64,000 nucleotides of DNA, from the IMG/VR virus record IMGVR_UViG_3300028886_000035, positions 160,001-224,000 of that record; one strand, written 5' to 3'. The translations under genes and the position numbers were made by a program. Under the pieces are notes generated by a model that searched no databases, was not told the DNA's origin, and worked only from the letters and a program-made list of their open reading frames with translations. Origin of the DNA: a virus. Taxonomy: Duplodnaviria; Caudoviricetes. Positions 21,296 through 57,857 of the stretch are shown here, piece by piece. Numbering within the stretch: position 1 is the stretch's first letter; every line of letters starts with the position of its first letter.

Positions 21296-21603
21296 TTTGA
21301 ACAACTCCCTTCTTGTTTCAATATAAGTATAACACACATACATACATAAAGTCAAGTATTTTTTTATTGCAATTAATTTTATAAAACATTTTACAATATC
21401 TATGTATATCAATCTGTAAAATGTTTTATCTATTTATTTGTAATAAAAATAATTACATTGTAGAATTGCCTACAAGTGTTATTAAAACACTACTACATAT
21501 AAATACTCGCATACTAGTATAAAACGCGCTACAGGCTAATTCTAGTGTATCAGAATAACAAAATAGCAGGGAATTTATTCCCTGCTATCATTTGAATTGC
21601 CTA

Positions 21604-22296
21604 TCAAAGTTTCTCTAAAAATCCTGCTTTTTTTGCTTTATTCTTCCCTACTCCATGAACCGGGAAAGTGATAACTGTTTTTCTGTCTTTTTTCCAACAC
21701 TTACCACAATTCACACATTGTACGTTTTCGTAAATCGTAGCGGGGCATTGTTCATATGTAATACCATCAATTACACGTTTTTTCTTACTCATACTCTCAA
21801 CTGCCATAACGCAATTTACACCTGCTTCATGACAGATTTTTGCTTTATCCTGTTTTTCAACAGAAAAGTTGATAATGAAACCTGCTTTACGCGCTTCTCT
21901 TGCTATTGCAAGATTTCTTTCATTTGTCGTACAATGAGTATACGTATATACTACATGACCTTTATACGCTTGCATAAGCGTCTGTACAAGTTTTTCGTCA
22001 ATATCGCTTGTTCCTTCTTTAGCAATATCACCTGCTACGTTATGACGAATAACAGGCGTGCAAGGATTTGTTTCAAGAACCTTTTTCAAATCGTTAGGAG
22101 TAACTACGTTCACACCCTCGCCCCTATCGACTTTATGCCAATGAATAGCGCAAGGACCACTCTTTGCATAGCAACCGTTATTACGGAAAGGACAACGAGT
22201 CGGGCAAGTGTTGCTAGACGTATATGTTTGACTGATTGCGCCCGTCTTGATGTTTTTGCTATTGCTAACAAATTTGATATACGTTTTAGTAGCCAT
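21604..22296 (-). CDS. Cys-rich conserved phage protein (TCP..CP....CYA, RHNVAGD, CPA...C..C..C), probable Fe-S/Zn enzyme
   Basis: 230 aa, GGAGG RBS, promoter, terminator. Confidence 0.8.
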   Translation of the reverse strand: MATKTYIKFVSNSKNIKTGAISQTYTSSNTCPTRCPFRNNGCYAKSGPCAIHWHKVDRGEGVNVVTPNDLKKVLETNPCTPVIRHNVAGDIAKEGTSDIDEKLVQTLMQAYKGHVVYTYTHCTTNERNLAIAREARKAGFIINFSVEKQDKAKICHEAGVNCVMAVESMSKKKRVIDGITYEQCPATIYENVQCVNCGKCWKKDRKTVITFPVHGVGKNKAKKAGFLEKL

Positions 22297-22542
22297 GATG
22301 AATTACCTCCATTGTTTGAGAACCATTCGATTAGGTTTCTCTCTTTCCCTAACCTTTGTCTATATTATAACGTTTATCGGATGCTTTGTCAATAGTTTTT
22401 GTATAAAAATATAAAAATTTTTTGTTCGTCTGTTCGTCTGAAAGTATAAAACATTTTACAATTTTGGATTAAAACATTTTATTTGTAAAATGTTTTATAT
22501 CGTGAAAATAAAAAAAAGAGTAGTATTACTACTCTTATGCTA

Positions 22543-22779
22543 TTAATCTTCTTTTTCACAAATTTGTAAATAATCGGGAGAAATATTTTCTGTATATTCA
22601 AAGGAATAGGGTTTTTCACCTTCTTCCAAAATAATGTTTTTATCGTTATGAAGATGGGATTGATTCAATTTAGATATATCAATTTTGAAAACTACGATTT
22701 TATCGTTTTCAATTGGTACAGAAATTGTCAGACATTTTATTTTATGGGACAAAAAAAGAGAGGGTTTTTCCCTCTCCAT
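22543..22779 (-). CDS. hypothetical protein or gene remnant
   Basis: short ORF between the 22784 stop and a terminator; start uncertain. Confidence 0.45.
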   Translation of the reverse strand: MEREKPSLFLSHKIKCLTISVPIENDKIVVFKIDISKLNQSHLHNDKNIILEEGEKPYSFEYTENISPDYLQICEKED

Positions 22780-22783
22780 TGAA

Positions 22784-23203
22784 TCAATACTTTTCAGCTT
22801 CCTCTTTTGTTTTGAAGTAACGAATGCCATCCAAGAATTCTTCCACATCTTTCAAATCTCCGTAATTGATAGCATCCATAGCGGTATCATAGTTTTCTAA
22901 ATCCTGTCCGCGAAGTTTGAAATCAAAATCTGTAGGGTCTTTGACGTAATCATCAGAAATTTGAAAGATGAAACTTGTATCGCCCGAAATGATATACTCG
23001 CGACCATCGAAAGCATATTCATTTCCCTTCTGTACATCACTAGCATAACTTGCAGAAATATTGTAAAGCTGACCACAATCTGCATTTTCTACGCTATCAT
23101 CATAGAAGGAATTTTCATCCCCATCATAAGCAAGATTGATAGCTTCTTTATCCTGATTGCAGTAATAGGAACCGACGGCATGAATGAAAACTTTTGCGTA
23201 CAT
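22784..23203 (-). CDS. acidic hypothetical protein
   Basis: 139 aa, GGAGG RBS, promoter at ~23249-23277. Confidence 0.8.
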   Translation of the reverse strand: MYAKVFIHAVGSYYCNQDKEAINLAYDGDENSFYDDSVENADCGQLYNISASYASDVQKGNEYAFDGREYIISGDTSFIFQISDDYVKDPTDFDFKLRGQDLENYDTAMDAINYGDLKDVEEFLDGIRYFKTKEEAEKY

Positions 23204-23254
23204 GATGAATACCTCCGTTTTTTAACTGTTTTCCTTATCTCTGTATTTAGTGTA

Positions 23255-23485
23255 TCACTCTTTTGCTTGTTTGTCAACAGGTTTTTTATGAACTTCCTGT
23301 TGAGCTTGCTGAATCACTTGTGCAATTTCAACGTCATCCACTCCAAAAATAGTCATGAAAGTAATTGCCGTATTGAAAGAGTGTTCAAGTTCTCTGCAAG
23401 CAGAAAAAGCGGCATCGAAAGTTTCCTTGAAATCTTTATCAAGGAAAGAAATGTCTTTGTTTTGAACGCGATTGTAGTAATCCAT
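23255..23485 (-). CDS. hypothetical protein or remnant
   Basis: 76-aa ORF with no clear RBS; 3' end overlaps the next promoter. Confidence 0.4.
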   Translation of the reverse strand: MDYYNRVQNKDISFLDKDFKETFDAAFSACRELEHSFNTAITFMTIFGVDDVEIAQVIQQAQQEVHKKPVDKQAKE

Positions 23486-23587
23486 GAAAAATGTTTTTGA
23501 AAAATGTCTGAAGATTTCTTGATGGAATTGTCAAACATTTTATTGATAGAATGGCAAAAAGACGGCAGAAATGCCGTCTTTTGATAG

Positions 23588-23857
23588 TTAATTACGAAAA
23601 GCCTGTAAGTAGGCTTTATAGAGGTTATTCATGAGAATAGCATAGCTAATATTGACATTGGAGACGTAATTGCTGTTGTTGTGGACATCTACCAAAAGGT
23701 GGAAAATTTCATCTCCAATGGTATTTCCAAACTCATTTCTATCCATCCCTTTGGAAAGGGAGAATGAAAACGACTTGTGAAAGTCGCTTGTTGCTTTCAA
23801 GATATAGCAATTTGTGTCTTTGTCGAAATGATTATCCCAAGTCCAAGTGTTCATCAT
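23588..23857 (-). CDS. hypothetical protein
   Basis: 89 aa, followed by a terminator. Confidence 0.7.
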   Translation of the reverse strand: MMNTWTWDNHFDKDTNCYILKATSDFHKSFSFSLSKGMDRNEFGNTIGDEIFHLLVDVHNNSNYVSNVNISYAILMNNLYKAYLQAFRN

Positions 23858-23872
23858 TTTGATTCCATCCTA

Positions 23873-24085
23873 TTACATTCCGAAGAATTTCAATGCTTTA
23901 TCAATCGTGTATTCCCAATCATTGAGAAGGACGGCAGAAATTGCAATCCCTTTTGCAATATCTTTTGCCGCTTCTTTACGTTCGGCACGCTTTTTTGCGG
24001 CAAGTTCTTTGCGCTTGACGAAAAGATTCCATTTTGTATTGTTATCAAGGTTATAGCGAAGTGCTTCAATGTCATCGTAAGTCAT
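23873..24085 (-). CDS. hypothetical protein (paralog of 29899-30111)
   Basis: shared W.LFV.R...KD...G......DW.YTID pattern; GGAGG RBS. Confidence 0.8.
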   Translation of the reverse strand: MTYDDIEALRYNLDNNTKWNLFVKRKELAAKKRAERKEAAKDIAKGIAISAVLLNDWEYTIDKALKFFGM

Positions 24086-24281
24086 TTTGATTACCTCCAA
24101 ATTTTGTCGTTTCCTTATCTCTTGTCTATATATTATCATGATACGGATATATTGTCAAGCACTTTTTTATAAAGGGAAGAAATTTTTTTGTGCATGAAAT
24201 TGTCAGACATTTTACTAGGAAAATATATATAAAAAGGATAGGGAACAAAACCCTATCCTTTTTTTGACAATTTATAGATTA

Positions 24282-43213: not shown

Positions 43214-43290
43214 TTTGACATCCTCCAACGACTGAAGTCGTTGGATTCCTAAGTGACTAACGTTTCTTGCTACCTCCACGGCAGTCTTAA
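43214..43290 (-). mobile_element. IS200/IS605 (TnpB-type) right-end remnant
   Basis: minus strand GGAATCCAACGACTTCAGTCGTTGGAGGATGTCAA: subterminal hairpin plus TCAA end; no tnpA or tnpB nearby. Confidence 0.7.
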
Positions 43291-54593: not shown

Positions 54594-54815
54594 TTAATTA
54601 TATGTGGTTCTAATTTCAGATAATTTCTTTTCTAATTCAAGATAACCATCTAGTGTTTCTTGTGAATGTGAATCTTGTTTTCTTAATTCCTTATCCTTTT
54701 CTTCTGCTTCATCTAAAGCACGTCGTAATCCACATATTATTTCCCAAACTCTATCTTGTGCAAGTACTACTTGGTTCATTACATCTGAATCTGCTTTAAT
54801 TAAACGTGATTTCAT
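54594..54815 (-). CDS. protein with N-terminal MKSRLIKA
   Basis: 73 aa, GAAGGA RBS. Confidence 0.75.
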   Translation of the reverse strand: MKSRLIKADSDVMNQVVLAQDRVWEIICGLRRALDEAEEKDKELRKQDSHSQETLDGYLELEKKLSEIRTTYN

Positions 54816-54925
54816 AACATCATTCCTTCTAGCATAATATTTTTATGTGTAAATTTTTCTATATCATCTTCATATGGTTTTTCATTTTCTTCATAATCAA
54901 ATTTATCATTTTGTTCATAGATTTT

Positions 54926-55434
54926 GCGTTGTTTCCTCCCACGATTTTAATCGTGGGAGGAAACAACGCTCCTCCTTTTTTTTGTGATATTATTAAGAAT
55001 ATAGAAAATCTTAATTCTGCTCCCTTTGTTAGCTTTTTGTCACTTCACAATAGAAGTAAAATTAGACAAATTTTCTATTTTGAATACTATTATATCACGT
55101 ACACTTTTCTTAAACCAGTATAGCGTAGATAGTCTATTAATTACTTTGTATACATATACTAGACTATTTTTTCCGTGATAGTTGACATATACACTTCCAT
55201 TTAGCCATACAAAATCAAACTTTGCAAGTTCCTCTTCTATCTCATTATAGGCTTTACTAGTATCTCCATATTCCTTCTTTAGCTCATTAGAATTAAAATC
55301 AAATGAAATTGCATACATGATTTGATACACTCTCTTTCTATAAATTTATTTTATATATAAAGACTTAGGCTATTCAGCAAGGGATTGTGATATTTCTACC
55401 ACAATCCCACGAATTTATTCGTGGGTTACTGAAC
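54926..55434 (-). mobile_element. non-autonomous IS200/IS605 (IscB-type) element enclosing vapD
   Basis: upstream end GTTCAGTAACCCACGAATAAATTCGTGGGATTG...GCTGAATAGCCTAAGTC (like an omegaRNA/HEARO 5' end); downstream 21-bp-arm hairpin with TTCCTCCCACGA..TCGTGGG. Confidence 0.65.
55040..55318 (-). CDS. vapD: virulence-associated protein D (VapD, Cas2-like)
   Basis: MYAI.FD...L...Y...AY.EI...L...F....GSVY...WF..SVRDI..FKIE..S.FT signature. Confidence 0.88.
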   Translation of the reverse strand: MYAISFDFNSNELKKEYGDTSKAYNEIEEELAKFDFVWLNGSVYVNYHGKNSLVYVYKVINRLSTLYWFKKSVRDIIVFKIENLSNFTSIVK

Positions 55435-55450
55435 TATTGAACAATTTATA

Positions 55451-56401: not shown

Positions 56402-57461
56402 TTAAAAATGCTTAACACGTTCTTCAACTTCATGACGTTTAGCATTATTCCATGTGGTTAAATCTCCTGTAAGATACATCTTACTTTCATAAAATGGACT
56501 ATTTCTTACCTCTGTGGGTCGTTGTGTTTAGTCTCTGCATTTAGATAAATCACATCATATTCATAAATATGTTTTCTATGTGACTTCAATTTTCCTCTCA
56601 TATGTTCAAATGATTTATTATATTCATTACTCAAAAACCTTGCACATTCAGACATTGATTCAAACTTTTGTTTAAAATTTTCTTTCATTAATATGATAGG
56701 TTTCATTCTTATTTTGCGTGCATTACTCCAATTAGTTAATATTACATTAATCATTTTTTCTGTTAATGCACGATTTTTCATTTGTACACTATGAGTCACA
56801 TATCTTAGATTTGTATATTTATTATTATGCGTGTTTCTGTCAATATGGTCTATTTCATAACCTTCAGGTCTATCGCCAAGCCAACATTCTGCAACAATTC
56901 TATGCATTGGTACTCGATGCACTTTACCTTTTAAATTAACAAAAGCTACATAATAACCATTTTTTGAATGATGATAATCTAATATAATTTTAATATGTTT
57001 CTTGGATTTTACATTTCTCAAAATTGTTCCATCATCATTCACTTCATATAAAAATTGTAATGATTTAATTTTTCTAAACTCACGATTAATATGATTACTC
57101 ATATCTCCCTTGATACCTCCATAATCATTTTTTTATTTCTGAACCTTATTAGGTATCCAATTATGGAAACTGTACTATTCAAAATACATTTACAACAGTT
57201 GATGGGCTTTTCTTACAGGGAATAACCCGTGATACGTCTAATTCTCTCAATTTTTGGTTTATCCTGCACATATTTAATATCAATATCTGCATTCTTTTCA
57301 TCTACTTTAGTAATAGTTACTTTTTCAATTACACCATCTTTTTCTTCTTTTTTTTCTTCTGCATAATTCAAAAAGTTTTCTGCGAACTTTTTATCAATAA
57401 CTGCTTCATCTTCAAATCCATTAAATACAATTGTCTTGTTATCAATCTCAAATTCTTTCAT
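56402..57461 (-). CDS. nrdD: NrdD glycyl-radical domain mini-protein, 103 aa after splicing; exons 57461-57225 and 56476-56402
   Basis: joined exons read IERIRRITG|YLTGDLTTWNNAKRHEVEERVKHF, the canonical NrdD C-terminus; own AAGGTGA RBS. Confidence 0.9.
56477..57224 (-). mobile_element. group I intron 5 (748 nt) with HNH ORF
   Basis: exon ends in U with P1 GGGU/GCCC; terminal G; R-like GCAGAGACUA and S-like AAGAAAUAGUCC. Confidence 0.88.
56506..57102 (-). CDS. intron-encoded HNH homing endonuclease
   Basis: HRIVA..W, IDHIDRN..NN...NL. Confidence 0.9.
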   Translation of the reverse strand: MSNHINREFRKIKSLQFLYEVNDDGTILRNVKSKKHIKIILDYHHSKNGYYVAFVNLKGKVHRVPMHRIVAECWLGDRPEGYEIDHIDRNTHNNKYTNLRYVTHSVQMKNRALTEKMINVILTNWSNARKIRMKPIILMKENFKQKFESMSECARFLSNEYNKSFEHMRGKLKSHRKHIYEYDVIYLNAETKHNDPQR

Positions 57462-57476
57462 ATCATATCACCTTTT

Positions 57477-57857
57477 TTATGAATTTAAAGTTTTCTTTAA
57501 AGTATTGCTAATTTTTTCTTTAATTTCAGGAGAGGGGTCATTTGCTTTTTTCACATTAAGCAAATCATAATCTTTTTCATACATTTCCGTATATAATTTC
57601 TCTAATTTATCTGCTTCATCTTGTGTACTGCAATCTACAATTGGAAGTATATCTAAATCATCAAAATCATATTTACTAATTTGTCTATCAGGATATGTAT
57701 AGTCCCCTGAATGATGTTGAATTAGTCTACGATGTAATGTATTCGTAGTTTGTCCAATATAAATTACATTATTTGTATTCTTATCTACAATTTTATAGAT
57801 ACAGAATTTTTTCTTATATTCTTTTTCCATATATAATTTTCCTTTTTTACGTCTCAT
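57477..57857 (-). CDS. free-standing GIY-YIG endonuclease (short)
   Basis: CIYKI...YIGQT...R...H, conserved E and N; short NUMOD3-like tail. Confidence 0.85.
   Translation of the reverse strand: MRRKKGKLYMEKEYKKKFCIYKIVDKNTNNVIYIGQTTNTLHRRLIQHHSGDYTYPDRQISKYDFDDLDILPIVDCSTQDEADKLEKLYTEMYEKDYDLLNVKKANDPSPEIKEKISNTLKKTLNS

Follow-up and report, generated by a model that had tools for sequence, protein, structure and literature searches.

A vapD gene framed by the ends of an IscB-type transposable element in a large gut phage

The locus described here raises the question of how a small gene for a VapD protein came to lie between structures resembling the two ends of an IscB-type (ISC) transposable element, and whether the resulting unit still moves. 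The window, that is, the whole stretch of 64,000 nucleotides that was analysed, spans bases 160001–224000 of a 281-kb viral record (28% G+C), and the public metagenome and metatranscriptome runs containing the locus are from the bovine gut. A sequence-only reading had described a truncated omegaRNA-like leader, vapD and an end hairpin, and all three parts were found where it had placed them. The interpretation that we favour, with some reserve, is that the vapD element derives from an ISC element (IscB-type, IS200/IS605 superfamily) and is now chimeric and non-autonomous, a relic in which vapD persists as a moron.

The whole insertion comprises 515 bp (54919–55433) on the minus strand, which is the strand of every gene surrounding it. 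It consists of an upstream, omegaRNA-side ISC end (55360–55433), a captured vapD cassette (54978–55362) and a downstream, iscB-3′-side ISC end (54919–54977), all on that strand. The upstream end holds the 5′ three-way junction of HEARO/omegaRNA, with a subterminal hairpin (55406–55425) and a second hairpin (55381–55408) inside it. The cassette provides a leader with a ribosome-binding site, the vapD coding sequence (55040–55318; 92 amino acids from the ATG of MYAISFD, plus stop) and a 3′ untranslated region. The downstream end is made up of a ribosome-binding-site-like run, a bipartite hairpin and a 7-nt tail, and its hairpin is a perfect palindrome with 21-bp arms (54926–54969, z = −11.4). 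The limits first proposed, 54926–55434, were shifted at both ends, as G55434 belongs to the flank and the element extends 7 nt beyond the palindrome. As proposed, vapD is cargo between the ends, although the foreign block measures 385 bp with its untranslated flanks and not the ~280 bp supposed.

A covariance-model search, suggested earlier as a check on the leader, returned a match of 55340–55433 (minus strand) to the Rfam HEARO model (RF02033) with a score of 27.3 bits (E = 0.004 in a 2.5-kb scan, 1e-4 genome-wide). The match covers the start of the model only, approximately positions 1–60 of 211, which bears out the description of a truncated omegaRNA-like leader reduced to the HEARO 5′ domain. 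Like HEARO/omegaRNA, the piece has these first positions and the predicted fold, a three-way junction of a closing stem and two hairpins (−28.2 kcal/mol, z = −6.1). Unlike it, the piece lacks 143 of the 211 model positions and the full scaffold, scores far under the 83-bit gathering score, and has no IscB available. Since most of the scaffold is missing and there is no IscB, this RNA is not a functional omegaRNA.

The ancestry of the upstream end could be traced at the nucleotide level. The first 74 nt of the element are 100% identical to L011 103–176, an end of a mini element of 230 nt that carries no gene and belongs to another phage, and they are 84% identical to L014 517–580, from a complete IscB element. 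A pattern derived from the upstream hairpin matched four viral loci, and the consensus structure of the domain showed 6 compensated pairs over 6 loci. Elsewhere in the same phage, outside the window, a second ISC remnant (L001 1501–1681, genome 238901–239081, minus strand) scored 57.3 bits against HEARO. Missing from it are the first 52 model positions, the part kept by the vapD element. It shares 80% identity with the L014 omegaRNA, is not followed by iscB and adjoins two tRNA genes. In L010 and L016 (about 537–780) a full HEARO (126 bits) is followed by a non-IscB ORF.

The downstream end gave a comparable picture. The last 55 nt of the element are 85% identical to the L011 end and homologous also to the L014 end, and the downstream end lines up column by column with 11 other ends, mostly behind IscB ORFs. 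Both helices covary in an alignment of 13 ends, with 89% of cells paired and 46 double changes against 15.7 in shuffles (reached in none of 500). The reading frame across this end mirrors the IscB C-terminus, so that remnants of IscB are still encoded. A generalised pattern of the hairpin found 13 viral loci, in about half of which the IscB frame enters the hairpin. A TTCCT/TTTCC internal loop was present in all 13 of these other loci and is absent from the window hairpin; pattern searches of viral loci for the perfect-palindrome form found none. An imperfect hairpin with an internal loop is needed for strand-specific recognition by TnpA, and loss of the loop probably removes this recognition.

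Other copies of the ends, which the earlier reading had proposed to look for, were found both with iscB (L014) and without a gene (L011). L012 and L014 represent the complete element, which starts in the same way as the vapD element and has a HEARO scoring 124.6 bits and a 420-aa IscB (RRXRR, 1e-65, plus HNH); the L014 element (517–2057) closes with a bipartite hairpin that holds the iscB stop codon. L011 carries both ends and no gene, and L027 is another mini element, of 385 nt. The end signatures of IscB elements given in the sequence-only reading were confirmed on L014, L022, L026 and L031, each with a HEARO of 124–134 bits or an IscB ORF. At their start lies the TCA...ACCCACG hairpin of the vapD element, and at their end a TTCCT-CC(C/A)ACG hairpin entered by the iscB reading frame.

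Outside viruses, the strict upstream-end pattern gave no matches in bacterial and archaeal genomes, and a looser hairpin pattern gave 21 loci, mainly in cyanobacteria and Bacteroidota, with one in an archaeon. None of the 20 such loci scanned had HEARO above threshold, and antisense TnpB occurred at one only. The hairpin by itself is therefore not diagnostic and offers no clue to the host. L015 (1096–2208) combines an ISC-type 5′ hairpin with an adjacent antisense TnpB gene, an arrangement that Kapitonov et al. reported for IS605B elements. A hairpin of this family also occurs in the window at 43225–43244 (CCAACG...CGTTGG core, loop-like flanks) between convergent genes and could represent a solo end or else a terminator, and similar solo hairpins occur at genome 144840–144859 and 122753–122772.

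Comparison with related phages, likewise proposed at the outset, revealed the empty site. Sister-phage contigs (L064–L069) match the window at 99.0% identity as far as 55434 and then from 54918 onwards, with 69–70 other bases between, and a cattle-gut contig likewise joins 54918 to 55434. The 515 bp themselves are identical in five independent assemblies (L070, L072–L075). Because empty alleles exist in sister phages, the block is a discrete insertion. A protein index search found copies of the 162-aa upstream gene, 98% identical, on 22 contigs, and six neighbourhoods had the same gene order without vapD. A search of IMG/VR with this 162-aa flanking protein gave no match, and megablast and tblastn searches of a reference phage collection gave no relatives of the locus.

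With this empty site in hand, one can weigh the view that the hairpins have nothing to do with transposons and that vapD is a moron lying between terminators of the usual phage kind or palindromes formed by chance. Such an account could point to the 20-nt hairpin core that recurs in the terminator-like site between convergent genes at genome 122753–122772, to the downstream palindrome, which scores as a terminator on the plus strand, and to the unspecific nature of a short hairpin motif that came without HEARO above threshold at all 20 bacterial and archaeal loci. It is refuted by the pairing of the same ends around IscB and HEARO in L011, L014, L022, L026, L027 and others, together with the empty site, which shows that hairpins and vapD arrived in one 515-bp block; we regard it as having practically no chance of being correct. 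The downstream hairpin was also considered as the terminator of vapD and rejected, since its T-run occurs only on the strand opposite vapD.

The junctions identify the target. In the empty allele the flank is followed at once by ATGAA, with whose ATG a 58-aa ORF begins (L065 815–991), and a second ATGAA occurs 69–70 nt on. In the occupied allele the element lies between the flank and the second ATGAA (54914–54918, minus strand; TTCAT on the plus strand), which abuts its downstream end. The flank beside the upstream end (55434–55450, minus strand) occupies the position of an omegaRNA guide and adjoins the other ATGAA in empty alleles. ATGAA/TTCAT is thus found at both junctions of the empty allele, with 69–70 bp of target missing from the occupied one. 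With a frequency of only 0.005 per position on the minus strand, the motif is unlikely to stand at the upstream junction by chance. ATGA also follows, after about 7–9 nt, behind 9 of 10 distinct non-window ISC-type ends of the alignment. ISC elements target N|ATGA (PMC4810608), and TTCAT is the motif shown for ISGst5 IscB and its TnpA (PMC10055086).

These alleles show a polymorphic insertion in a 281-kb cattle- and pig-gut phage, made at a canonical TTCAT/ATGAA target right at the start codon of the 58-aa gene. This ORF, intact in L065, L066 and L069, is destroyed in the occupied allele, where the last 34 codons and the stop remain (54812–54916, minus strand) and the start codon is gone; it was broken by the insertion together with the loss of 69–70 bp between the two ATGAA sites. 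Two routes could explain this loss: the element inserted canonically at the first ATGAA and a repeat-mediated deletion of 69–70 bp came afterwards, or the sequence between the two target motifs was replaced in one step.

Several features of the surroundings were recorded alongside. In L014, as in the empty allele (L065 815), the ATG within the target ATGA also opens the next gene, which in L014 encodes a WYL domain (2058–2065). Some element tails, such as the ends of L024 and L027, provide GGAGGA just upstream of the start, and ISC-type elements seem to park directly before start codons. Within the 58-aa ORF of L064–L069, a run of A9 or A10 lies about 12–21 nt past the first ATGAA; A10 leaves the frame intact and A9 is a frameshift. 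The region is rich in selfish elements: genes resembling HNH (window 56506–57102, 5.6e-13) and GIY-YIG (57477–57857, 4.4e-10) homing endonucleases lie 1–2.4 kb upstream of the element, adjoined by a split-looking nrdD.

The cargo has a source of its own. Cassette 54978–55362 is 91.8% identical to L036 and L032, 88.5% to L005 and 85.7% to L004, over 380–385 nt. These related cassettes (L004–L009, L032–L036) belong to another phage lineage, represented by six or more contigs, in which they follow a 229-aa gene and precede an SNF2-helicase region. Their VapD proteins are 72–97% identical to that of the window, and neither hairpin is present at their loci. The element is therefore chimeric: 74 nt identical to L011, a last 55 nt homologous to L011 and L014, and between them a block that exists elsewhere as hairpin-less cassettes. 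This agrees with the earlier proposal that iscB and most of the omegaRNA had been replaced. The 74-nt omegaRNA-side end and the 59-nt iscB-3′ end are all that survives of the ISC element, the 385-bp cassette having taken the place of the remaining omegaRNA and the entire iscB in sense orientation.

The joints between the blocks indicate how this could have come about. The cassette block shares 3 nt with the block of the upstream end and 1 nt with that of the downstream end, and such overlaps fit illegitimate, microhomology-type recombination. A further segment, a 126-aa ORF, is common to L005 (7198–7632) and the giant phage (genome 253743–254176) at 82% DNA identity, and on this ground the donor lineage of vapD and the giant phage exchange DNA. 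Illegitimate recombination at these 1–3 nt overlaps is the probable route by which the vapD cassette was copied from a different phage lineage living in the same habitat. We lean towards capture inside an element that already resided at the site. No full ISC or mini element was found at the insertion site among about 42 contigs; given this, and with flanks of the occupied and empty alleles only about 1% apart, capture in situ is no more parsimonious than the arrival of a ready-made composite in one insertion. As a separate observation, a solo ISC-type downstream end (L028 4082–4149) lies elsewhere in the genome of the 119-kb phage that holds the hairpin-less cassette (L004), which places both parental modules in one phage.

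The product of the captured gene was compared with characterized VapD proteins. It matched H. pylori HP0315 (PDB 3UI3) with E = 5e-28 and Haemophilus VapD (6ZN8) with E = 2e-12; the match to NCBIfam NF041506 (E = 7e-12) reached 45.7 bits, where the equivalog cut-off is 100 bits, and that to Pfam Cas2 had E = 1e-3. In the reference phage collection, the sole vapD match was in a Helicobacter cetorum phage (57%). The gene is intact, and the residues aligned to HP0315 D7, L13, S43 and D76, whose mutation most reduced RNase activity (PMC3351183), are all identical. No ORF except vapD lies between the ends, in agreement with the earlier remark that no vapX is adjacent, and the donor-type cassettes lack vapX as well. 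The gene therefore resembles stand-alone HP0315 in its match, its four conserved RNase residues and its want of an adjacent antitoxin, but differs from HP0315 and from Haemophilus VapXD in being phage-borne, enclosed by transposon ends, under the equivalog cut-off and without vapX.

One possible role for such an arrangement is that VapD and the residual 74-nt RNA, or the 3′ hairpin, form a functional nuclease–RNA pair in which the RNA is a partner, substrate gate or regulator. A structured RNA does share a transcription unit with vapD, directly upstream of the gene, the two structures are highly stable, and VapD and Cas2 are RNA- or DNA-binding folds. However, the closest vapD genes (72–97% protein identity) have neither structure, a transposon end without vapD (L011) matches the RNA piece at 100% identity, and no covariation links VapD with the RNA. 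The suggestion that the nuclease is paired with a residual RNA consequently found no support, and we judge it very improbable. We infer instead that VapD is a stand-alone moron, most likely expressed as an endoribonuclease from a transcript that it shares with the leftward gene block; what is left of the ends would serve at most as untranslated-region hairpins. The occupied allele was recovered as contigs from three cattle-gut metatranscriptome libraries, contigs being unable to show transcription, its ends or its strand.

Whether the unit still moves depends on helpers. No RRXRR domain was found in the 281-kb genome, and tblastn with the L014 IscB gave no match; with no IscB and about two thirds of the scaffold RNA gone, RNA-guided homing is excluded. 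A Y1 transposase for action in trans is encoded at genome 23507–23869 (PF01797, 123.8 bits), within an IS605 element of the phage (L017; genome about 21600–24250, minus strand, outside the window) that has a 158-aa TnpA (genome 23468–23944, minus strand) and a 537-aa TnpB. The G+C content of this element is 0.35–0.44, against about 0.25 around it. On its tnpA side the end repeats the architecture of ISC ends, with their outer stem, internal loop and CCCACG inner stem, and an ATAA site follows. Mobilization by TnpA in trans, as put forward in the sequence-only reading, is to that extent plausible, but the composite was seen at one site only: the exact VapD occurred on 20 contigs from many samples, all with one neighbourhood and no second site. 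No IscB fragments or hairpins of this family were found at 24 other viral vapD loci, and no circular end-to-end junction was found in four runs. Elements with these ends do occupy several other sites in cattle-gut runs, at a depth much above that of vapD.

These data bear on a more active history, in which a cargo mini-transposon was assembled elsewhere, inserted whole by a Y1 TnpA in trans, for example that of the phage's own IS605, and still hops or is exchanged between phages. The clean insertion at a canonical TTCAT/ATGAA, with motifs at both junctions and no intermediate seen at the site, would suit such a history, as would ends of the minimal length for a Y1 transposase, an upstream end 100% identical to an abundant mini element, and a tnpA in the same genome whose IS605 end hairpin is similarly built. 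One TnpA is able to excise several IS families (PMC10055086), and trans-mobilization of ISC elements has been predicted (PMC4810608). Set against this are the single site across all 20 contigs, the 24 other viral vapD loci that carry neither IscB pieces nor family hairpins, a downstream palindrome without the TTCCT/TTTCC loop kept by every other member, and an insertion that was not simple, 69–70 bp of target having been lost. On balance we regard an active element as possible but rather unlikely, and it is more doubtful still that the 515-bp unit represents a natural cargo-carrying ISC-type mini-transposon moved between phage genomes by Y1 transposases. Under the relic interpretation that we prefer, the element would now be immobile or only rarely mobile.

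Among known systems, the closest are the ISC elements themselves, whose conserved 5′ terminus and whose 3′ side each hold a subterminal hairpin, and which insert 5′ of ATGA without target duplication and are expected to use a Y1 transposase in trans (Kapitonov et al. 2016, PMC4810608). The vapD element shares with them, L014 517–2057 being the best example, the conserved 5′ terminus, the subterminal hairpins, the ATGA target without duplication and the non-autonomy. It differs in lacking iscB, in keeping the first third of the omegaRNA only, in the foreign gene between its ends and in a 3′ hairpin that is a perfect palindrome. Gene-less, PATE-like derivatives of IscB and TnpB elements are known from the ISGst families of Geobacillus stearothermophilus, where the TAM of ISGst5 is TTCAT (Meers et al. 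2023, PMC10055086). Their counterparts here are L011 (230 nt) and L027 (385 nt), and the vapD element resembles them in its two-end miniature form, its TTCAT target and an upstream end 100% identical to L011. Whereas those derivatives carry nothing or a guide-RNA scaffold, the vapD element carries an intact passenger unrelated to transposition.

To our knowledge, the only load attributed to IS200/IS605 elements, and to their miniatures without genes, is guide RNAs or genes for the elements' own maintenance. Here, natural ISC ends frame an unrelated intact gene, both parental modules have been identified and the empty site has been found. If the element is a relic only, it is a tidy example of the decay of an RNA-guided element in phage genomes. 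For scenarios of how CRISPR arose, it is of anecdotal interest that a Cas2-like gene lies here between the ends of a Cas9-ancestor element; were the transposon active, it would be a vehicle shuttling a Cas2-fold RNase gene within such ends, and a living example of module linkage. If a Y1 transposase still moves the unit, it would offer phages a simple route for the exchange of morons and would be a natural template for small single-strand cargo transposons.
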